From the sequence record MK524178.1: a stretch of 64,000 bases of DNA; one strand, written 5' to 3'. Below the pieces are notes generated by a model that was not told the DNA's origin, ran no database searches, and saw only the letters and a program-made list of their open reading frames with translations. Below, one piece after another: positions 21,212-30,312 of the stretch (positions are counted from its first letter, which is position 1; the number at the start of each line of letters is the position of its first letter). Source of the stretch: Escherichia phage PHB12. Position numbers and translations under genes: made by a program.

Positions 21212-21493
21212 CTATTTTTCTGAAGCGCCCGAAATATATTTTTCAAGACGTTGTTTCATCAGCGAGCCGTTCTTAGCGATTTCTTCCGGTTTATCGCACA
21301 TACGCAACAAGGCTTCAAGCTTAACGATATCACTGGTACGTTCAAATTTGCGAGTATCTATCTTACTAGCAAGTTCAGAAATACGTGCTAATAGACTTTC
21401 AGCTTCAACCAAAGCTGCACCTAGCTTAGTTGCAAATGTGTCAGTAGCTTCGTTAAGAATAGATTCTGATAAAAATTCACTATATGTTTTCAT
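21212..21493 (-). CDS. internal-protein-like protein (about 93 aa)
   Basis: From the internal ATG begins [11 protein letters not shown]. Confidence 0.6.
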
Positions 21494-21978
21494 ATATACG
21501 CTTTCCAAGTTCCTGTTTTAAATGTTGAGATTACGCGTTTCGCGCGATTAGGTGTCTGACGATACCATTTAGATTGGGCTAGATTTACTGCCGCTTCGTC
21601 CCAACGTTTCTGTTGAAGCATACGAAGAGAATTAGTAAAACCAGCGACGCCTGCTACACCCATTTGGAAGACCATATTGACCAATGCACATCGACGAACT
21701 GCATCTAAAGAATCATATACCGGTTTAAGTTTAGCATTACCCAAGATTCCGCGAACGGCTTTATCAACGTCTTCATTAAATAGCTTTTCAGCCTCATCAA
21801 GGGTAATTGTACCGTTGCATTTACGTCCGATCATTCTGTCAAGTTCAGCTTTAGCTACGGCTAAAGACGGGTTCTTTGTTACTAAATGGCCTATGCCAAT
21901 CGTCCAAAAGCCTTCAGTGTCTTTGTATAAAGACAGTCTAAGACCTTCGTCATTACGAAGCATTTCAAATATATTCAT
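21490..21978 (-). CDS. e: lysozyme (endolysin)
   Basis: [15 protein letters not shown]...[12 protein letters not shown] closely matches T4 lysozyme as recalled; SD sits in a hairpin (ATACCTCC/GGAGGTAT) at 21980-22005. Confidence 0.93.
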
Positions 21979-22012
21979 AATACCTCCCACGTTTATAGGA
22001 GGTATTTATTAC

Positions 22013-22471
22013 TTATAAGAGGGTAGTGAGCACCTTATATAATGATTTGCCCATTACATATTCCCATTGAGAAGGTTTAATTAAAGCGAATGCATCAAAT
22101 TCAGGAATCTGTCGTCCATCCGGGAACGTATGATAGGAATTACAAACACTGTTTCTGAATTGCTCGTGCTCTACAGGGATGGTATATAAGAACAGATGAA
22201 TATTCTTATTGTCTGAGTAATGATGTTCACCTAGGTCTTTCAGGAAGGCAGGGTCATATTGTGTAAACCCAGTTTCTTCTTCGCATTCACGAATAGCGGC
22301 TTCGATAGGAGATTCACCGGGCTCGACACGACCTTTAGGAATATCCCACCGATGAGCTAATGCACCTTTAGGACGAGAACCAGTTACACGGCCCATGAAT
22401 AACTCTTTATCTTCGGTAAGGAAAATAATACCGGCTGATAGTTCTTTCACTTTATTTTTCTTACTCATCAT
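22013..22471 (-). CDS. nudE: Nudix hydrolase
   Basis: Nudix box GRVEPGESPIEAAIRECEEETGF. Confidence 0.85.
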   Translation of the reverse strand: MMSKKNKVKELSAGIIFLTEDKELFMGRVTGSRPKGALAHRWDIPKGRVEPGESPIEAAIRECEEETGFTQYDPAFLKDLGEHHYSDNKNIHLFLYTIPVEHEQFRNSVCNSYHTFPDGRQIPEFDAFALIKPSQWEYVMGKSLYKVLTTLL

Positions 22472-22712
22472 CTCGGTCCCATGATTTGGCCATTAATTCG
22501 GACATAAATTCTTCAATGCGCGTTTCTTTAGATGGACTTTCACTATTAGAGACCGCAAGTTTGTAATCTGCAATAGGACAGAACATATCAAGGTCCATAT
22601 TAAGGTCGTCTTTGATTTTTTCTTCTGACACATCTTTATCGTATGTGTACAGATAACTATCACATGATTCTGATTTAATGTAAATTGCTATACTCATCTC
22701 AAATTCCTGCAT
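22461..22712 (-). CDS. small acidic protein, 83 aa
   Basis: ORF track. Confidence 0.5.
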   Translation of the reverse strand: MQEFEMSIAIYIKSESCDSYLYTYDKDVSEEKIKDDLNMDLDMFCPIADYKLAVSNSESPSKETRIEEFMSELMAKSWDRDDE

Positions 22713-23173
22713 TCGGTAATAAAACGTTCAACTTCATTATTCTTGGCTTTTATCTTGTCTTTATGTTCTTGTAAACTACTTTTAATAAGATTAATAATGA
22801 TGGCGGCGGTACCGCCGCCAATGATGCCACCAACAACGCTTATGATACTAGATGCTAATAAGATAGCAATAATATCAACAAAACCGAAAGAACTCACCTT
22901 AGTACTGAAAAACCATATAGATGGTACAAATATAATCCATCCTGTTATCCATTGGCACTTATTGAAAAACTTTTCAAGCTCAGCTTGAGTTGTTCGTATT
23001 ACTTCATCGATAGGTTGATATCCATTAATGTATCTGTTCACGATAATACCTGCTGGCTGGTCGATTTTAAATTCTTGGCAAATATGTTTCACTAAGTAGG
23101 ATGGACATCCTGTCCAATCTACTGAATAGTATGAAATACCTTCATTGCCATCGTCTATATTATTGTTAATCAT
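22694..23173 (-). CDS. membrane protein with C-terminal RFITECR tail, 159 aa
   Basis: Two hydrophobic segments; tail shared with four other ORFs in this block. Confidence 0.55.
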   Translation of the reverse strand: MINNNIDDGNEGISYYSVDWTGCPSYLVKHICQEFKIDQPAGIIVNRYINGYQPIDEVIRTTQAELEKFFNKCQWITGWIIFVPSIWFFSTKVSSFGFVDIIAILLASSIISVVGGIIGGGTAAIIINLIKSSLQEHKDKIKAKNNEVERFITECRNLR

Positions 23174-23859
23174 TACCAGCCTTCCATAGGGAATTCCAGA
23201 TAAACTTGAGCATTGACACGAATTTCATTGGTAATCTTTTTAACTCGGTCTGTATTACGAGATACACGTCCGAACCAACGCCATCCATTACTAATTGCAC
23301 GAGAACCAGTGTGCCATGTTTGCCAATCAAACTGAAGAAGAGTACGATCTGGAGCTTCCCATTTCTCTAGTTCACCTTTTTCAATTTTTTCGAGGACTTC
23401 TTTGTGCCACTGACGATAGATAAGTTCGCCATCAGGAATCTGACTGAACTCTGCAGTTCCTGTTGCAAAATGAGTAGGACACACGTCAGCGTTAACAAGA
23501 CCAAGAATATGTTCAGACAAATAGCGAGGATTGTCATAATCAGGTTGTCCTGCAGTAATAAAATGTTGTCCTGTTGGAATATCTGGGCGTGGTACGTCAT
23601 CATGGTGATATCCAGGAATAGCAGGGTACCAACCAGGCATCAGCATGTGGACTCGTGAATCAAATACTACATCCGAGTCTTTCCAATCGTCAGGAAGATT
23701 TTGGATAAAGCTACGAGTAATTGGGCCGCCATTATCAAAAGCAAAATTCAAATCGCAGTTAAAGAACATAGGCTCGTTTTTAATCTGGTCGTTTTTAATC
23801 GCATGAGCAAAACCGCCTACTGCACGAGCTTGACTATTAAACACTTTAGAACTATTCAT
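23173..23859 (-). CDS. hypothetical protein, 228 aa (possible Fe/2OG-oxygenase-like, very tentative)
   Basis: ORF track; His/Asp-rich patch GYHHDDVP; no firm family assignment. Confidence 0.5.
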   Translation of the reverse strand: MNSSKVFNSQARAVGGFAHAIKNDQIKNEPMFFNCDLNFAFDNGGPITRSFIQNLPDDWKDSDVVFDSRVHMLMPGWYPAIPGYHHDDVPRPDIPTGQHFITAGQPDYDNPRYLSEHILGLVNADVCPTHFATGTAEFSQIPDGELIYRQWHKEVLEKIEKGELEKWEAPDRTLLQFDWQTWHTGSRAISNGWRWFGRVSRNTDRVKKITNEIRVNAQVYLEFPMEGW

Positions 23860-23860
23860 A

Positions 23861-24166
23861 TTATTTTCCTCGACATTCTTTAATGAAATTTTCTAGATTG
23901 GTAGATTCAATAGCTTTTTTACGAGCTTCTGCGTGTTCTTCTTCGGACAATTTACATTTATAATTGACCCAGACATTATGGTCGAAACTAGTCGTAGCAT
24001 ATAATAACAATGCTCCAACGAATAGCAAAAACGGCGATAAGAATACAAAACCAGGAACACCATCCATATCGTAAGCCTTTTGTAATACTGCAACAGAAAG
24101 GGCTGCGTAAAAAGGTGATGCAAATATTGTTAAAAGACCAATTCGGTTGGTTTCGCCTAATTTCAT
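23861..24166 (-). CDS. two-TM membrane protein with C-terminal ENFIKECR tail, 101 aa
   Basis: Hydrophobic helices LLTIFASPFYAALSVAVL and FVFLSPFLLFVGALLLY. Confidence 0.55.
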   Translation of the reverse strand: MKLGETNRIGLLTIFASPFYAALSVAVLQKAYDMDGVPGFVFLSPFLLFVGALLLYATTSFDHNVWVNYKCKLSEEEHAEARKKAIESTNLENFIKECRGK

Positions 24167-24185
24167 AATATTCTCCTCATGTTTT

Positions 24186-24226
24186 AATAGGACTACTATA
24201 ACATAGTCCCTATAATTGTGTAAACA
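24186..24226 (-). promoter_or_regulatory. early promoter with palindrome (PeSL-type cassette)
   Basis: Minus-sense GTTTAC; inverted repeat TAGGACTA/TAGTCC over the -10 region. Confidence 0.55.
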
Positions 24227-24237
24227 GTTTTGTGAAG

Positions 24238-25194
24238 TTATTTGAAAGGTTTTACCATATGGAAATTTTGTTTGAAACGTTTGACGTAATCATCATGTCC
24301 TAAGCTTTGGTACATACTTACTACTTTGCTGTAGTTTTCCCAGGCGTATTCACGGAACCAACCGGAGGTGATGCTTGTACAGACTTTTTCCAATGCCATC
24401 ATGAAACTGGCTTCAGGGTTAATTTTAAAGTCATTAGGAATCTGAGAACGTTCTAATGCTAGTACACATGATTCTTCGTATACACCGGCCAACTTGACCA
24501 TTTCTGGTAATGATTCGAACTTCTCGCGTGAGGTCATGACTTCAGAACCATCTTTCATATAAAATGTATACGCTGGACGGTCTGTTAGCGCAATGGCTTC
24601 ATGAATAGTATCATGGTCATATGTATAGATGCCATCTTTAAAGAACGCACTTTTAGAAGTGTCAAGAACTGGGTGAACATAGTTCAAGGTTTCTTTCTGG
24701 CGTTTCAGCATAATTTCAGTAAGTTCATCGTTCAGTGTAACACCTTTACCACGAAGATACTGAATATGGTTCATAGTCTTTAAAAAGAACGGATTATTTT
24801 TCTTGAAACGATGAGACATCTTAATTGCAAGACATATCTCAGGAGTCGCCCAGTAAAACCCGTTCAAACGGTCTTTAGTCAAATTTTTCTTGGCGTATTT
24901 TAAAAGGTCATAAGAAGACGTGAAATCTTCAGGAGTGAGTTCACCGACTAATTCACGGGCATTAGTGATTGCCGGAACAATATATGCTTCAAAATGAGTT
25001 TCGCGTCCATTATGGAAGCATTTGAAAACTTGGACATCAGGGTTATCTTGATGAACATATACACCCATCATTTGATTTTTGAACGCATTCCAAGAACATT
25101 GGTCTGCAATAAAGTCCCAATCACTATTTTTGATAGCGCTAGAATCAATAAGACCGTGATAGTGAAGTGCACGAGAACCAATAACTAACATCAT
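24238..25194 (-). CDS. hypothetical protein, 318 aa (possible nucleotidyltransferase-like N-terminus)
   Basis: N-terminal IGSRAL...SDWDF; spacing is atypical for a Pol-beta motif. Confidence 0.5.
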   Translation of the reverse strand: MMLVIGSRALHYHGLIDSSAIKNSDWDFIADQCSWNAFKNQMMGVYVHQDNPDVQVFKCFHNGRETHFEAYIVPAITNARELVGELTPEDFTSSYDLLKYAKKNLTKDRLNGFYWATPEICLAIKMSHRFKKNNPFFLKTMNHIQYLRGKGVTLNDELTEIMLKRQKETLNYVHPVLDTSKSAFFKDGIYTYDHDTIHEAIALTDRPAYTFYMKDGSEVMTSREKFESLPEMVKLAGVYEESCVLALERSQIPNDFKINPEASFMMALEKVCTSITSGWFREYAWENYSKVVSMYQSLGHDDYVKRFKQNFHMVKPFK

Positions 25195-25222
25195 AATATT
25201 TTCCTCGGATTAATTCATTAAC

Positions 25223-25462
25223 TTAAATTTCACGACATGCGATATCATATTCATCCCAGAGGTCATCGTGTGAAGCCTCTACTAATGGAACGATTGTACC
25301 ATTTATGTCTTCATTATAAGGGCAAATTGTACAGTGCGCATCTTCGAATCGGATGCCTTTGTGTTCAGATTTTTTATAACGCATATCGAATATCTTTGCA
25401 AACTTTTCACGAGTAATGGTTTTAGCAACCACTTTGGTTCCAATACTTTCATAATAAATCAT
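25223..25462 (-). CDS. small Cys/His-containing protein, 79 aa
   Basis: ORF track; HCTICPY motif. Confidence 0.5.
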   Translation of the reverse strand: MIYYESIGTKVVAKTITREKFAKIFDMRYKKSEHKGIRFEDAHCTICPYNEDINGTIVPLVEASHDDLWDEYDIACREI

Positions 25463-25480
25463 TGTGGACTCCGTTTAATT

Positions 25481-25521
25481 TGATAGGACTACTATAACAT
25501 AGCCCTATCTTGTTGTAAACT
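25481..25521 (-). promoter_or_regulatory. early promoter with palindrome (PeSL-type cassette)
   Basis: Minus-sense GTTTAC plus near-copy of the TAGGACTACTATAACATAG element. Confidence 0.55.
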
Positions 25522-25524
25522 GTT

Positions 25525-25722
25525 TTAGCAAGAATAACTAGATGATACCCAGCCTTGAACAGTGATACTATTGTGGGATAATGAGATCGCGTCCTGGAGA
25601 TTCAGACCTGCGTTATCTTCAATCCATAACGTAACTTCTTCGCTTTCTTCTGTTGCAATTTGGAACAGGTTTTCCAGAGCAGCTACTGCCGTACGTACAG
25701 CACAATCTAATTCACGAGACAT
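25525..25722 (-). CDS. Cys-tail family member (ends WVSSSYSC), 65 aa
   Basis: C-terminal G-W-V-S-S-S-x-x-C shared with two adjacent paralogs. Confidence 0.6.
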   Translation of the reverse strand: MSRELDCAVRTAVAALENLFQIATEESEEVTLWIEDNAGLNLQDAISLSHNSITVQGWVSSSYSC

Positions 25723-25731
25723 ATGGTTTCC

Positions 25732-26004
25732 TTAGCAAGTGTGAGAAGATGCGATCCAACCACCAGTTTCGAGGCTTAGGTTGTAGTCGTATTGGTAAAC
25801 GTCGGCCCATTCAGCATAGCCGTTTTTTGTACAACGTTCAAGGTCGGCTTTAAGCTGTCCGGGTGAATGATATGTTCCACCCATACCATAAGCTGGATAC
25901 AAGTCGAATGTTGTGTTTTGTTTATCAGCAATTTCTTTGGCAGCCTCAATAGCTGCATAGATTTTTGCTACAGCTTCAGCCAGTTCGGTTTGTTCTTTAG
26001 ACAT
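25732..26004 (-). CDS. Cys-tail family member (ends WIASSHTC), 90 aa
   Basis: Same C-terminal motif; the stop codon is followed directly by the SD of the next gene. Confidence 0.6.
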   Translation of the reverse strand: MSKEQTELAEAVAKIYAAIEAAKEIADKQNTTFDLYPAYGMGGTYHSPGQLKADLERCTKNGYAEWADVYQYDYNLSLETGGWIASSHTC

Positions 26005-26013
26005 AATGATTCC

Positions 26014-26319
26014 TTAGCACAACGCAGAAGACGAAACCCAAGCACCTTCAGTAATAACGTAACCATTACCTTCACGCTTAACATCGCCACCATTATTTTC
26101 AATTTCATCTTTCATCCACTGGGATACGATTTCACCCTTAGGATAATAAGTACGACCGCTACCATAATCACCTACAGAAAATGATACGGCATATTGGTCT
26201 GCGATCTTTGTTGCTTCTTCTTCGATACGTTCAGCTTGGTTCAGAAGTTTATAAATTGCATCTGAAGCGGATTTGGCATCATTAAACTCTGGTACTTTAA
26301 TTTCAATAATCTTACTCAT
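26014..26319 (-). CDS. Cys-tail family member (ends WVSSSALC), 101 aa
   Basis: Same C-terminal motif; N-terminal amphipathic helix. Confidence 0.6.
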   Translation of the reverse strand: MSKIIEIKVPEFNDAKSASDAIYKLLNQAERIEEEATKIADQYAVSFSVGDYGSGRTYYPKGEIVSQWMKDEIENNGGDVKREGNGYVITEGAWVSSSALC

Positions 26320-26675
26320 TTTCTACATTCCTTAATAAAGTTTTCTATTGTTTCATTTTCACGTCTAGCTAGGAGTTCATTATAACTAATCATTTGAGAA
26401 GCGTAAACTTTTTTATTTTTCTTGTTATGGTTTATAAAATCGTAGTAAAAATAGACTACAGTACAAAAGGATGCGATGGATGCAAAGGCTTGGGTATACC
26501 GTAAGTCCTGCCATTGGTCTGTGAATCCACCAGAGTTCCCTATAAATCCTAACACAACGCCGTCAATAAGAAATCCAACTAATCCAAAGGCAAATCCCAT
26601 GCCAATACTCATAATAAAAATTAGAATGTTCTCACCAAGAGAAGGCCATACGGTTAAGAGTTGAGGCTTTTGCAT
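26316..26675 (-). CDS. membrane protein with C-terminal ENFIKECR tail, 119 aa
   Basis: Hydrophobic segments ILIFIMSIGMGFAFGLVGFLIDGVVLGFI and FASIASFCTVVYFYY. Confidence 0.55.
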   Translation of the reverse strand: MQKPQLLTVWPSLGENILIFIMSIGMGFAFGLVGFLIDGVVLGFIGNSGGFTDQWQDLRYTQAFASIASFCTVVYFYYDFINHNKKNKKVYASQMISYNELLARRENETIENFIKECRK

Positions 26676-27079
26676 CTTATTTCCTTAACGAATTCCATAG
26701 CTTCTTCATATTCATACTTTTTAACAGCTTCATCATACTGAGCTTGGGCTTTTGCGCACTGAACTTTCCACTCACGAACTCGAGCTCTGTGATGACGGCC
26801 TTGGTGCCAATATCCTACCCAGTTAATAGGCATTAATAAAAATGGTACAATAAGTGGTGCGACGAACATTAATGAAAATGCTGCATCAGACGATATAACT
26901 TCACTAGAATCTAAAACAGCTCCTATAATCATAAAGATTAAAAATGCTAAAGCTAAAATAGGGCCAAATAGTACTTCGTTTGGGATTAATTTACGTTTGT
27001 ATTCATACGCCCAAGGCTTAATTGGCATGTATAGGGTTGGCTTTGACATATTCTCTACATTCCATAATAAATTGCTCAA
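26654..27079 (-). CDS. membrane protein with C-terminal EFVKEIR tail, 141 aa
   Basis: Two TM segments; likely start at the internal ATG (MSKPTLY). Confidence 0.55.
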   Translation of the reverse strand: MSNLLWNVENMSKPTLYMPIKPWAYEYKRKLIPNEVLFGPILALAFLIFMIIGAVLDSSEVISSDAAFSLMFVAPLIVPFLLMPINWVGYWHQGRHHRARVREWKVQCAKAQAQYDEAVKKYEYEEAMEFVKEIRCKSLNS

Positions 27080-27635
27080 GGATTAAATTGTTAGTGAAAT
27101 TAGGACTAACAACCATAGTTTCATAAAGCGCATCAATAGCACTTAAAGCATCAACTCTTTTAAGCAAAGGCTTGCCTTCATACATAGTTTCAGAATCGAC
27201 GATTAACGTAAAGTAGTATTTTTTATTATCGACTAGAACTTCTGTATCGATATAAAACATATTAGACCTCAGAAGCTTATCTCTAAAACCATAATAATCT
27301 TCAGAGCGTTCGCTGATATATTCCAATTCAGTGTTTAAACAACAAACAGACCACGTAGGAGCAACGAAATCAGTGAATCTAATATCATGGTCTGCAACTA
27401 GTTTAGCAATAGCTCCGATATCATTAATCATGATACCTGGGGCTAATAAAGATTTTCGGTTATTTGCATATTCAGTTGTCTCATAAGAAGCTGACCAGTA
27501 CCATTTACGTCCGGTTGCAACATATCGTAATGAATCGACTAAAGACGTAGGTGGATTTACCTTATCTCGGAACTCTTCGAACATTGAGTCAATATCATTA
27601 TTTTGGTTTCGCATGTTAACTCCTTTATTATCCAA
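27018..27635 (-). CDS. soluble protein carrying an EQFIMECR motif near its C-terminus, 205 aa
   Basis: ORF track; probable start at the internal ATG (MRNQNN). Confidence 0.5.
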   Translation of the reverse strand: MDNKGVNMRNQNNDIDSMFEEFRDKVNPPTSLVDSLRYVATGRKWYWSASYETTEYANNRKSLLAPGIMINDIGAIAKLVADHDIRFTDFVAPTWSVCCLNTELEYISERSEDYYGFRDKLLRSNMFYIDTEVLVDNKKYYFTLIVDSETMYEGKPLLKRVDALSAIDALYETMVVSPNFTNNLILEQFIMECREYVKANPIHAN

Positions 27636-27663
27636 AAGGAGGACCGGAGTCCTCCGTATTATT

Positions 27664-28272
27664 TTATTTCAAAGAGTTAATATATTCTTGTACATCAGCA
27701 GAAGTGGTTTCGACACCGGCTGGAGTGCCGTTGAACGTTTCAACACGAGTCAGAGTGTCTTCGATATCAACCTTAGTCAGTGCAGCAATTTCAATCACAT
27801 CATCAGCCGTAGAGATACCAAGAGCATTGGCTGCTCGAGTTTCACGAATGTATTCGAGTTTGATTGCCAGATTCTGACGAGCGTCATCAAGTTCAACCAC
27901 CTTACGAGCAATTTCAATTCGCATAGCGGCGTACCCGTCAGCTTTTGTATTAAGTTGTTCGGCAGTTCGACGATACAGAAGACCAAGCTTAGCATGCATG
28001 GTAACATCTTGTCCTTCAGCCAAGAGCTTACGAATTTCACGTTCCTTAGAAGCGGCTTGCTTGTTCTTTTCATTAACAAGTTCGCGAATACGTTTTTCTT
28101 CATTAATAGATTTAATAGAAGCCGTTTTTAGTTCTTTGATTTGGGTAATCAACTTATCTGCAGCTGCGTTATACTGTTCTTCGACAGTCAGATTTTTAGC
28201 CATAGCAGTACCCAGTTTAGTGCGGATGAATTCAACAAGTTTCTTCAGTGTGTTCATATTATTACCTTTCAA
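27664..28272 (-). CDS. coiled-coil protein, possibly PspA/IM30-like, 202 aa
   Basis: Heptad-rich and charged throughout, with the length and composition of PspA-family proteins; no motif-level proof. Confidence 0.45.
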
Positions 28273-28327
28273 TTGGTGGTTTATTATCCAATGAGAGCAT
28301 TATACTCTGCTCTCAAGAGTTTGTAAA

Positions 28328-28555
28328 TTATTTTTTAATCAAATTGACATAAAATTCTGCATCTTCAGGGTGCATGCCTTCGCAGTATTCTTCAACCATG
28401 AACTTCTTAACAGCTTCATAAGGGCCACTCAGATTAAGCTTGGTTGTCCAGAACTTGGAATCTTGGGCTGAATCGATACGAACTTCAGGGTGACGGTTGC
28501 GAATAACTTCTTCAGTGTATTCATAATCAACGACATCAATACTAACTGTAGCCAT
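28328..28555 (-). CDS. small acidic protein, 75 aa
   Basis: ORF track. Confidence 0.5.
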   Translation of the reverse strand: MATVSIDVVDYEYTEEVIRNRHPEVRIDSAQDSKFWTTKLNLSGPYEAVKKFMVEEYCEGMHPEDAEFYVNLIKK

Positions 28556-28601
28556 TTTGTTTTCCTCTTGATTTGATGTGATTACTATAACATAAACTTA
28601 C

Positions 28602-28766
28602 TTAGATGTAAATTATTTCAACGTCACCTTTAGCTGCTTTATAACCTTCAGCCCAAGATACAACAGAGTTTTTATCCGAGGATTCAAATTCAGGCATTGG
28701 ACTTTCACCGATATTCACACAGTATGTTTCTTCATTTTCATCGAACCAAATAATTAAAGTAGTCAT
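28602..28766 (-). CDS. small ORF, 54 aa, below the ORF-track cutoff
   Basis: Manual translation MTTLIIWFDENEETYCVNIGESPMPEFESSDKNSVVSWAEGYKAAKGDVEIIYI; SD GAGGAG and a promoter cassette upstream. Confidence 0.45.
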   Translation of the reverse strand: MTTLIIWFDENEETYCVNIGESPMPEFESSDKNSVVSWAEGYKAAKGDVEIIYI

Positions 28767-28937
28767 TTTGTTTACTCCTCTGTAGTTGATAAGTCTATAG
28801 TATCATGTCCTTAGAAGAAGTAAACATCTTTATGAAATATTTTTATGCCCTAGATACCAAAAGGCCCCAACCATAAGGAAGGGGCTAAGCCTTGCGGCAA
28901 CCTTGTCGGGGTTCCACCTGCTAAGGCAAGTGTTTGT

Positions 28938-29095
28938 ACGAAACGCCGGGATTCGAACCCGGTTATTAAGCAGTTGACGCTACTCAATATTTTTAAAAGG
29001 CCATATCTCGACCATATCCGAACGTTCCGTCAAAAACGCTACTCGGCTTATAGCAAAGATATTTCCTCGAATCGATAATTCGGTGCGCCGTTTCT
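28938..29095 (-). ncRNA. candidate stable RNA with a tRNA-like T-arm and acceptor 3' end (possibly related to T4 species 1/2 RNAs)
   Basis: Minus-sense CCGGGTTCGAATCCCGG followed by CGTTTCG, with complementary GAAACG about 150 nt upstream; too long for a tRNA; no long ORF. Confidence 0.3.
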
Positions 29096-29197
29096 GCTGT
29101 GATGTAAGGGGATATTAACGAATCATAAAGATTTATTAAGACCAGTCCTTACACAGGGAACATCAGTCCGACGACTTGCCGGTAGCGACCCGGCTTC

Positions 29198-29542
29198 TTA
29201 TTTTGGCATATTATCAATTTGCTCTCGACGCCGACGCCATAGATTAATCGCTTCATTAACACATTCGGCGTTTAGTATATGACGGCAATAATATAATGAT
29301 TCGCGTTTCTGAAACCGATGTTGCAATGGGATTTCGTTTAAAAGGTCTTTGCGATCAAAGTATTCAAAACTAGTTAACCCGGAACGGTTTTTAATGAACT
29401 TCCAATGACCAAATTCATTTTGGAAATAAACGTAATCAGCGTGTTGATATAACGAATTAATCAACCGGTCGGAAATAACTGTATCCTGTTCGTTAAAATA
29501 AAACGTTAAATCATGAACTACCAGATAAACATTGCCTTTCAT
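29198..29542 (-). CDS. hypothetical protein (about 114 aa from the internal ATG) between the tRNAs and the RNA region
   Basis: ORF track frame; the alternative-start extension would overlap tRNA-Arg, so the internal ATG (MKGNVYLVVHD) is preferred. Confidence 0.45.
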   Translation of the reverse strand: MKGNVYLVVHDLTFYFNEQDTVISDRLINSLYQHADYVYFQNEFGHWKFIKNRSGLTSFEYFDRKDLLNEIPLQHRFQKRESLYYCRHILNAECVNEAINLWRRRREQIDNMPK

Positions 29543-29560
29543 ATTTTCCTCACTTAAAAT

Positions 29561-29637
<77 letters not shown>

Positions 29638-29643
29638 AATATA

Positions 29644-29717
29644 TGACCCAGACCAGATTCGAACTGGTAACCTTTCCCTTATGAGGGGACTGCTGCTAAC
29701 CGTTGAGCTACAGGGCC
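29644..29717 (-). tRNA. tRNA with anticodon CAT (Ile-lysidine or Met type)
   Basis: T-arm ACCAG-TTCGAAT-CTGGT and anticodon loop CTCATAA; acceptor and D stems each carry one mismatch in my hand fold. Confidence 0.5.
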
Positions 29718-29796
29718 TAAATAACTTTCTATTATGAAAGGCACTTTAGAGCACCTTTGGTAATAGAGGGTATGAATTAATAATAACACATAATTC

Positions 29797-30312
29797 TTAA
29801 AGCAAATCAACCATTTTAACGGTTGGCAAAACAATTTCTTTTTCAATATAAGCAAATTCGACACGTTCAACTACACGCAAGAAATCGTAATCATAGTATT
29901 CAGAAGCATAGCCAAGAATATCAATAAGTCCTTGAGATATCTCATCGCCTTTCACAAAGAACAGGTCGAATACGCGGGCTTCGTCTTCTTCAGATTTATC
30001 ACCAAGGTCGACTTCAATATCAAAGACCTTTTTAATAAATTCCGGTTGGAGTTGGTCTGAGAACAGTCCTTCAACCAGATATTCGTAGATAATAAGCGAG
30101 CAACGTCCGAATGGTGTATTACCGCAATAACGTTCGGCTTTAGTGCTAGAATGACGGCTCTTAAATTTCTTAAAGAGATATTTAAACTGTTGGAGCTCAT
30201 GCTCTTCCACTTCAAACAATGTTTTGGTTTTATAGTTGTCACCATCACTTTCATATGTAGTGACATCAATTACGTAGCCCTTAGGAATTGTACTGCCTAA
30301 ACGAATATTCAT
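29797..30312 (-). CDS. hypothetical protein, 171 aa
   Basis: ORF track. Confidence 0.55.
   Translation of the reverse strand: MNIRLGSTIPKGYVIDVTTYESDGDNYKTKTLFEVEEHELQQFKYLFKKFKSRHSSTKAERYCGNTPFGRCSLIIYEYLVEGLFSDQLQPEFIKKVFDIEVDLGDKSEEDEARVFDLFFVKGDEISQGLIDILGYASEYYDYDFLRVVERVEFAYIEKEIVLPTVKMVDLL

Follow-up and report, generated by a model that had tools for sequence, protein, structure and literature searches.

An RB69-type accessory block between nudE and the tRNA genes of Escherichia phage PHB12, with two predicted enzymes among its genes

The 64,000-nucleotide stretch of Escherichia phage PHB12 DNA analysed here (record MK524178.1; hereafter the window) carries a dense block of small genes between nudE (22013-22471) and its tRNA genes. 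An earlier note, made from the sequence, had marked out positions 22461-28800 as an accessory block larger than that of T4 and as the kind of module in which counter-defence and host-takeover genes accumulate. The question raised by this locus is whether the block is peculiar to the phage and, if it is not, what its additional genes might do. We conclude that it very probably represents the plastic "e-to-tRNA" accessory region of the T-even phages in its Mosigvirus (RB69-type) form, edited by recombination at promoter cassettes. The block is already known and annotated, and no component of it is unique to the window; two of its genes, orthologs of RB69ORF132c and RB69ORF134c, are predicted to encode enzymes. 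In the text that follows the genes are referred to by the short form of their RB69 names (132c, 134c and so on).

The ORF listing contains 15 tightly packed minus-strand open reading frames (ORFs) of 54-318 amino acids (aa) between nudE and position 28800. The packed array described in the earlier note was thus confirmed, its count of about 18 ORFs was not; the 228-aa and 318-aa proteins that it singled out are indeed present (23173-23859 and 24238-25194), and its description of the rest as mostly small membrane or acidic proteins agrees with four membrane-type products (e.2, 133c, e.3 and e.4) and eight with an isoelectric point (pI) below 5.3. Every one of the 15 matches a PHROG family at E <= 2e-18, from which we take them to be genes and not chance ORFs. 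Scans of the block against Pfam and NCBIfam gave no functional family except FRD3 and two DUFs. The GC content of the block (0.34-0.43) is similar to that of its flanks.

A megablast search with window positions 21400-29800 against 50,697 phage records matched 835 of them, and in 132 a single location covers 80% or more of the query. The top DNA matches come from the genus Mosigvirus (E. coli O157 typing phage 3 [O157tp3], APCEc01, JK45, pEB20 and RB69) at 96-97% identity, which by sequence marks the window as belonging to an RB69-like T-even phage (Mosigvirus) and not to T4. In the RB69 record (AY303349, 66171-72493) all 15 genes recur with order and strand unchanged, each at 87-100% aa identity by local tblastn, and the alignment of window positions 21900-28805 with RB69 is a single colinear block of 96.4% identity with 21 gap positions in 6925 columns. 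The order given in that record is nudE, ORF130c, e.2, 132c-137c, 138c/139c, e.3-e.6, frd.3 and ORF145c, so that all 15 genes are colinear with an RB69-type nudE-to-tRNA region; e.2 and 130c are the most divergent (87-90% aa). The earlier note had named orthologs of every ORF at the same position in well-studied T4-like phages as the outcome that would refute it. RB69 provides exactly that, and nothing in the block is special to the window.

The two phages also share their flanks, with nudE on one side and rnaC/rnaD, ORF150c, tRNA-Arg and tRNA-Met on the other. They differ in that RB69 has a further 1545 bp with ORF146c, e.8, ORF148c and ORF149c where the window has approximately 50 bp; because these four ORFs are missing, the block of the window is smaller than that of RB69. 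A second difference is that the RB69 record gives 138c and 139c as two ORFs, where the window has one intact ORF of 101 aa. The RB69 pair appears as a frameshift-split form of this ORF, which is also intact in pEB20 and O157tp3; the RB69 record contains such errors elsewhere, in genes 46/47 (PMC13326640).

T4 has a smaller set of genes in this position. In its genome (NC_000866, 67.5-70.9 kb) nudE is followed by e.2-e.8, then by rnaC, rnaD and eight tRNAs with segB. The figure in the earlier note of about eight T4 ORFs (e.1-e.8) was right, since nudE is e.1 and e.2-e.8 follow it, and the block does exceed that of T4, with 15 ORFs against seven (e.2-e.8, approximately 3.4 kb), or about double. 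When the whole T4 genome was searched with tblastn, only e.2 (24%), e.3 (34%), e.4 (54%), e.5 (47%) and e.6 (88%) were found in place; the frd.3 homolog (57%) sits near frd at 146.6 kb in T4, i.e. it is relocated, and nine genes (130c, 132c-135c, the paralogous trio 136c, 137c and 138c/139c, and 145c) lack a T4 homolog altogether. The two gene sets are therefore not the same, e.7 and e.8 being absent from the window. The intervals resemble each other in their position between nudE and rnaC/rnaD/tRNAs and in their F-[IV]-x-[ED]-C-R tails, and differ in that T4 has e.7 and e.8 and its eight tRNAs with segB, against two tRNAs in the window.

Among the 80 viral contigs with a 132c homolog that we examined, 23 are T4-like genomes of approximately 150-230 kb. 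At least 20 of these 23 keep the order e.6 ... trio ... 134c ... 132c ... (e.2) ... nudE ... e, including members of other genera in which nudE identity falls to 57%. Judged from these gene orders, the RB69-type layout is the usual arrangement, from which T4 departs by reduction. In the T4 reference sequence, e.2 (67472-67960; annotated as 102 aa) is broken by two in-frame stop codons, beyond which the frame continues through a membrane-like segment to "...NNFITECRKLK" and overlaps nudE, as does the 159-aa e.2 of the window. T4 e.2 thus appears to be a gene shortened by nonsense mutation.

Five T4-type early promoters (TTTACA/TTTACT, a spacer of 17-18 nt and TATAGT/TATAAT) lie upstream of 133c, 135c, e.6, frd.3 and 145c, as had been anticipated in the earlier note, which credited several of the ORFs with their own promoter cassettes. 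The sites score 10-11 of 12 matches, that of 145c having been read by eye, and all five are sigma-70-like early promoters close to TTTACW N17 TAYWAT, the consensus of the promoter/stem-loop (PeSL) cassettes of the PST/T4 pair (PMC4122927). The cassette of 133c (24195..24224, minus strand) reads TTTACA N18 TATAGT and forms the hairpin AGGGACTATGTTATAGTAGTCCT (z = -2.35); that of 135c (25491..25519, minus strand) reads TTTACA N17 TATAGT with TG (hairpin z = -3.08); and that of e.6 (28299..28327, minus strand) reads TTTACA N17 TATAAT, with 11/12 matches and a hairpin at z = -4.07. In these three the -10 hexamer lies within a hairpin more stable than shuffled sequence (z -2.4 to -4.1). The promoter of frd.3 (28584-28612, minus strand), which overlaps the 3' end of 145c, has no hairpin, and the region of the 145c promoter (28796..28856, minus strand) folds (z = -2.4), not as a compact hairpin. 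Beyond the end of e.6 lies one strong intrinsic terminator (27638..27655, minus strand; GGAGGACTCCGGTCCTCC followed by TTTT). The block contains neither a late promoter (TATAAATA) nor a MotA box; the sole MotA-box-like middle promoter in 21900-29900 is at 29806 on the minus strand (TTTGCTTTA ... TATTAT), just upstream of tRNA-Met/tRNA-Arg.

Two of the promoters, those of 133c and 145c, coincide with indel boundaries when the window is compared with three genomes (RB69, pEB20 and O157tp3). O157tp3 has a 273-bp insertion with a 66-aa ORF at window positions 24213/24219, which separates the -35 from the -10 of the 133c promoter, and it also carries elsewhere a copy of the 135c cassette that is 93% identical. 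Homology to all three relatives stops at 28805, inside the 145c promoter, at the junction where the window has its approximately 50 bp in place of the 1545 bp of RB69, and all three have a further copy of the 145c promoter segment farther on. This breakpoint, together with the extra promoter copy in the relatives, points to a deletion between two cassette copies, and the window looks like the resulting deletion variant.

We propose that the block is an early-transcribed, single-strand accessory array, presumably non-essential, whose excess over T4 would derive from retained cassettes that T4 does not have, and that the early-promoter/stem-loop cassettes (PeSL-type) would be the sites at which recombination edits it. 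Its separable units are the trio with 134c; 132c; the membrane proteins with e.5; and e.6 with frd.3 and several small acidic proteins. In the early phase of infection, the products would influence the physiology or the defence of the host. Several points weigh against this reading. The terms "accessory" and "non-essential" derive from what T4 lacks and from the indels that separate related phages, and the functions given for all block genes are predicted or deduced. Two of the five promoters are without a convincing hairpin centred on the -10, three have TATAGT, which is one position off the published TAYWAT, and the recombination role of the cassettes is drawn from two breakpoints and three compared genomes.

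One unit of the block is formed by 134c and the three genes upstream of it. 136c (25525..25722, minus strand, 65 aa), 137c (25732..26004, minus strand, 90 aa) and 138c/139c (26014..26319, minus strand, 101 aa, a single intact ORF) encode acidic tandem paralogs ending in G-x-W-[VI]-[SA]-S-S-x-x-C. In an alignment of 26 family members Y52, G53, G55, W94, S97 and C101 are invariant; 136c, which lies outside this alignment, has kept the tail and lost the YGxG segment. An exhaustive profile hidden Markov model (HMM) search of 1.84e9 representative proteins found 46 relatives only, all of 64-124 aa bar two long multi-domain proteins. The 25 that were retrieved have in common AYGMGGTYYP and a C-terminal W-x-S-S-x-x-C with Cys as the last residue or nearly so, and throughout the family the tail ends no more than two residues from the C-terminus.

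This family is linked to 134c. Viral contigs searched with a degenerate DNA pattern for YGMGGTYY yielded 24 loci. At 17 of them the small-protein motif is followed, on the same strand and after 0.1-1.3 kb, by a 134c homolog; the remaining seven are truncated, with less than approximately 1 kb of sequence beyond the motif. ORF maps of these loci show one to three small genes followed directly by the full-length 134c homolog, including on contigs of 355-389 kb. Reciprocally, 67 of 79 testable loci with a 134c homolog (38-97% identity) have a match to the trio-family HMM upstream, and tail-bearing frames at such loci number 180 upstream and none downstream. As controls, the tail occurs in three of 559 frames of the window (the trio only), in none of 1408 in T4, and, across 704 kb of phage loci that lack a 134c homolog, in two of 7852. 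From this linkage we infer that the trio and 134c form a pair of an enzyme and a cognate small protein, the latter acting as regulator or substrate. The module would thus comprise one to five W-x-S-S-x-x-C proteins, three in this phage, followed by 134c, and it seems not to have been described before.

134c itself (24238..25194, minus strand, 318 aa) matches Pfam DUF7277, followed by the helical DUF7275, and its AlphaFold model is confident (pLDDT 93.2). Its fold and sequence have the attributes of the pol-beta-like nucleotidyltransferase (NTase) superfamily, namely hG[GS] ... DxD, a third carboxylate and an alpha/beta fold, and the signature residues G6, S7, D25, D27 and E69 are invariant in 84 homologs with identities down to 45%. 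We therefore predict, with the structure model in view, that 134c is a pol-beta-superfamily NTase. DUF7275 contains a second cluster that is equally invariant (K125, H128, K139, R165, H174, D193, H194, D195, H198, E240, E241, R249 and R281), and fold searches found no solved structural analogue of this domain. Homologs of 134c were found with tblastn in 733 phage records, nearly all as "hypothetical protein". A scan of one genome per species from 185,579 bacterial and archaeal species gave five matches, all in metagenome bins on large contigs, and on that basis the family is effectively phage-restricted. The five contigs carry the labels Saccharibacteria, Bacteriovoracales and Chitinophagales, and four of them are 73-383 kb in length; they are probably mis-binned phage contigs. 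Literature searches found no paper on DUF7275/DUF7277 (full text) and nothing specific on phage MenT-like enzymes. True membership of 134c in the MenT/AbiEii group was considered and rejected: it has no DUF1814 (PF08843) match at E <= 0.1 and no motif IV, the catalytic Asp unique to DUF1814 as defined in PMC10435456, there being no Asp approximately 15 residues past the candidate motif III Lys.

What such a pair might do can be read in more than one way. In a MenAT/AbiE-like pair, 134c would be a toxic tRNA-modifying NTase that halts host translation, and the upstream proteins would be its cognate inhibitors. The likeness in toxin-partner arrangement consists of gene order alone, a small protein upstream, and we consider this reading doubtful: DUF1814 is unmatched and the motif IV position is without Asp, the structural similarity is modest (TM <= 0.5 at 8-12% identity), the family is nearly absent from bacterial genomes (the five bin matches on phage-sized contigs), and no known antitoxin trait corresponds to the presence of two to five "antitoxin" paralogs in tandem, all with the same invariant Ser/Cys motif at the C-terminus. 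The trio may instead be the substrate, the NTase nucleotidylating the invariant tail Ser, possibly with subsequent elimination and thioether closure on the terminal Cys, which would yield small proteins carrying post-translational modifications. In favour of this, only the tail (W94, S97, C101) and the YGxG motif are invariant, 136c retains the tail although its YGxG segment is gone, and never more than two residues follow the tail; the intact catalytic residues of the NTase and the second invariant His/Asp/Glu/Lys/Arg cluster in DUF7275 are also in keeping with it. A Ser placed three or four positions ahead of a C-terminal Cys is reminiscent of the lanthionine/AviCys-forming peptides. Against this, the neighbourhood yielded no homolog of a dehydratase, cyclase or decarboxylase, and we found no earlier case of a pol-beta NTase in this kind of chemistry; we hold the proposal to be quite unlikely as it stands. 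A broader formulation, which we offer as speculation with the odds against it, is that the trio and the NTase constitute a new type of phage-exclusive system, in which either the Ser/Cys of the tail is nucleotidylated or processed, or the small proteins gate a MenT-like RNA-end NTase for host takeover.

The module may extend further upstream. Small acidic proteins resembling 130c (28-33% identity) occur in six viral contigs, jumbo-phage contigs among them; in the four loci where such a gene was called it lies directly upstream of trio-like genes, and in both mapped loci small membrane proteins are found further upstream of it. 130c and the membrane proteins may therefore be part of an extended NTase module.

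The second predicted enzyme, 132c (23173..23859, minus strand, 228 aa), gave a confident structure model with a double-stranded beta-helix (DSBH), and fold matching returned PhyH/EctD/EasH-type enzymes. H85, H86, D87, D88, H183 and R194 are invariant in 68 of 68 homologs. The protein thus has the DSBH fold, the HxD/E...H triad and the basic 2-oxoglutarate (2OG) residue of the Fe(II)/2OG dioxygenases, the roles of the residues being assigned by sequence position and not by superposition, and we predict from the model that it is a stand-alone enzyme of this class. No curated family supports the assignment, as neither Pfam nor NCBIfam (PhyH, 2OG-FeII_Oxy etc.) gave a match; one homolog is named "phytanoyl-CoA dioxygenase family" in UniRef. 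Searches of PDB sequences with 132c, 134c and e.6 gave no significant match. 132c is the best conserved gene of the neighbourhood, at 81% identity in Aeromonas phage AP1 against 45% for 134c and 50% for e.6, and is 70-93% identical over more than 100 clusters with hosts from Escherichia to Aeromonas. Homologs were found with tblastn in 472 phage records, again nearly all annotated as "hypothetical protein".

Two roles for 132c were considered and set aside. It is probably not in one pathway with 134c, since it neighbours 134c in T4-like genomes only (23 of 80 loci) and stands by itself in 55 loci. Nor do 132c and 134c belong to the arabinosyl-5-hydroxycytosine pathway of RB69, the genes of which are others (RB69p003, 028, 045-055 and 159; PMC13326640, Table 1), with no block gene among them and with 5-hydroxycytosine (5hoC) derived from a ThyA homolog. 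In eight of the 55 contexts without other block genes, a 132c-type gene stands beside Nampt, with a 4-nt overlap in three and immediate adjacency in a fourth, and several of these loci also carry an NMNAT-Nudix fusion; the distance between 132c and nudE, itself a Nudix gene, is 0.7 kb in the window. A phage NAD+ salvage pair of a 132c-type gene and Nampt is a lead from these contexts.

The suggestion that this is a counter-defence island, with most of the extra genes inhibiting host immunity, deserves to be weighed in its own right. The genes are early-transcribed, small and acidic, they vary between relatives, and they lie in a plastic region. Dmd, Arn and IpI are T-even counter-defence genes of similar character in similar regions. 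The anti-DarTG1 genes AdfA and AdfN are likewise similar in character and region type, and map outside the block (PMC11825919). We nevertheless regard such an island as possible but unlikely: the literature searched gave no match to characterised anti-defence proteins, and the majority of the extra genes do not vary, in that the trio, 134c, 132c and e.6 keep their order across genera, with 132c at 70-93% identity from Escherichia to Aeromonas. Conservation of this degree is more in line with a housekeeping-like accessory role than with a gene engaged in an arms race. PADLOC also gave no match, its library consisting of host defence proteins and not of phage counter-defence proteins. At the other extreme, the extra ORFs might be decaying or neutral ORFan filler, as could be read from the 138c/139c split in the RB69 record, the in-frame stops of T4 e.2 and the four RB69 ORFs lost from the window. 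All 15 ORFs are intact, however, with 87-100% identity to RB69 and membership in PHROG families; the catalytic residues are invariant over 68-84 divergent homologs; and synteny is kept across genera. These conservation data largely refute the filler explanation, which we consider very improbable. An RB69-type accessory region edited at its cassettes remains the account that we prefer.

The membrane proteins form a unit of a different kind. The window has five copies of a tail of the form F-[IV]-x-E-[CI]-R, every one in the block (e.2, 133c, e.3, e.4 and e.5), and the tail overlies the Shine-Dalgarno sequence and the start codon of the gene that follows. It is also found in T4 e.3, e.4 and e.5 and in other sampled E. 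coli-type T-even genomes, not in more distant genera, and among 2752 open frames of related loci the 19 that bear it are all in this block. The membrane proteins are not paralogs, alignment between them being limited to the tails of 9-15 residues. Nor is the motif likely to be purely a DNA-level repeat, as the Arg (AGG, CGA, AGA), Cys and Phe codons vary between copies; these codon differences argue for selection at the peptide level. The four small inner-membrane proteins and e.5 would thus make up a unit marked by an F-[IV]-x-E-C-R tail.

Going through the block from nudE, 130c (22461..22697, minus strand) encodes 78 aa of pI 4.2, with 90% aa identity to RB69 (phrog_2900); an upstream ATG at 22712 is an alternative start that would give 83 aa. 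The predicted membrane protein e.2 (22694..23173, minus strand, 159 aa) is 87% identical to RB69 and 24% to T4, belongs to phrog_2203 ("membrane protein"), and has a hydrophobic segment at residues 88-131 and a C-terminal FITECR tail. 133c (23861..24166, minus strand, 101 aa; phrog_9798) has two hydrophobic segments and a C-terminal FIKECR. 135c (25223..25462, minus strand, 79 aa; phrog_3723) is acidic and 100% identical to RB69, contains three Cys residues in a CxxC and a C-terminal ACREI, and adjoins the 134c homolog in other T4-like loci. Beyond the trio, the membrane protein e.3 (26316..26675, minus strand, 119 aa; 98% to RB69, 34% to T4) ends in a FIKECR tail that overlaps the start of 138c/139c, and is followed by the membrane protein e.4 (26654..27049, minus strand, approximately 124-131 aa; 99% to RB69, 54% to T4) with a FVKEIRC tail. 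The product of e.5 (27018..27614, minus strand, approximately 198 aa; 95% to RB69, 47% to T4; phrog_2607) is acidic and soluble, with FIMECREY close to its C-terminus.

The helical e.6 (27664..28257, minus strand, 197 aa) is 88% identical to T4, against 24-54% for its neighbours, has only 39 homolog clusters, and is called "host specificity protein" in some sources. A PspA/Vipp1-like (ESCRT-III) membrane-remodelling identity for e.6 was not supported: in profile searches against PDB, Vipp1/IM30 was collinear but non-significant (E = 1.3-2.6), and hhalign gave a probability of 0.5% with an E. coli PspA sequence entered by hand. The frd.3 homolog (28328..28555, minus strand, 75 aa) matches Pfam Phage_FRD3 at E = 3e-37 and is 57% identical to T4 146578-146802, and 145c (28602..28766, minus strand, 54 aa) is acidic. 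Past the block lie, on the minus strand, homologs of rnaC (species 1; 28937-29075), which is 97% identical to T4 over 139 nt, and of rnaD (species 2; 29082-29201), which is 84% identical. In the comparison of this phage with T4, the conservation of rnaC far exceeds that of every protein gene nearby, and no Rfam family matches either homolog. ORF150c (29198..29542, minus strand, 114 aa; 96% to RB69) is located between rnaD and tRNA-Arg (29561-29637), and tRNA-Met (29644-29717) follows.

As a genomic feature the block is minor, being a standard RB69-type region. Its value is as a pointer to two predicted enzymes with intact catalytic residues that are conserved in hundreds of phages and annotated as "hypothetical", and to a module that occurs in several hundred sequenced phages, jumbo phages included. 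RB69 is genetically tractable, which makes these genes cheap and well-defined targets for deletion and biochemistry.

Compared with known systems, the cassettes resemble the PeSL (promoter-early stem-loop) cassettes of T4-type phages (Arbiol et al. 2010, PMC2839356; Comeau et al. 2014, PMC4122927) in combining a sigma-70-like promoter with a stem-loop, in being repeated, and in lying at indel boundaries of close relatives. They differ in that the hairpin encloses the -10 hexamer in three of the window's cassettes, the other two being without a convincing hairpin over the -10. We found no earlier description of PeSL cassettes of the RB69 group in that literature (PMC2839356, PMC4122927).

The closest structural neighbour of 134c is MenT1, and 134c shares with MenT/AbiEii the pol-beta NTase core, the GS...DxD motif, a third acidic residue and a small protein encoded immediately upstream. 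Unlike those enzymes, it has a much larger, unrelated C-terminal DUF7275 and is found in phages, not in bacterial chromosomes, and unlike MenA its upstream proteins come in one to five copies with a conserved Ser/Cys C-terminal tail. 132c resembles PhyH/EctD/EasH in its DSBH fold and in its His-x-Asp ... His motif, with an Arg 11 residues past the distal His; PhyH has the same His-to-Arg spacing of 11. It differs from these enzymes in being short (228 aa) and unusually conserved across phage genera.

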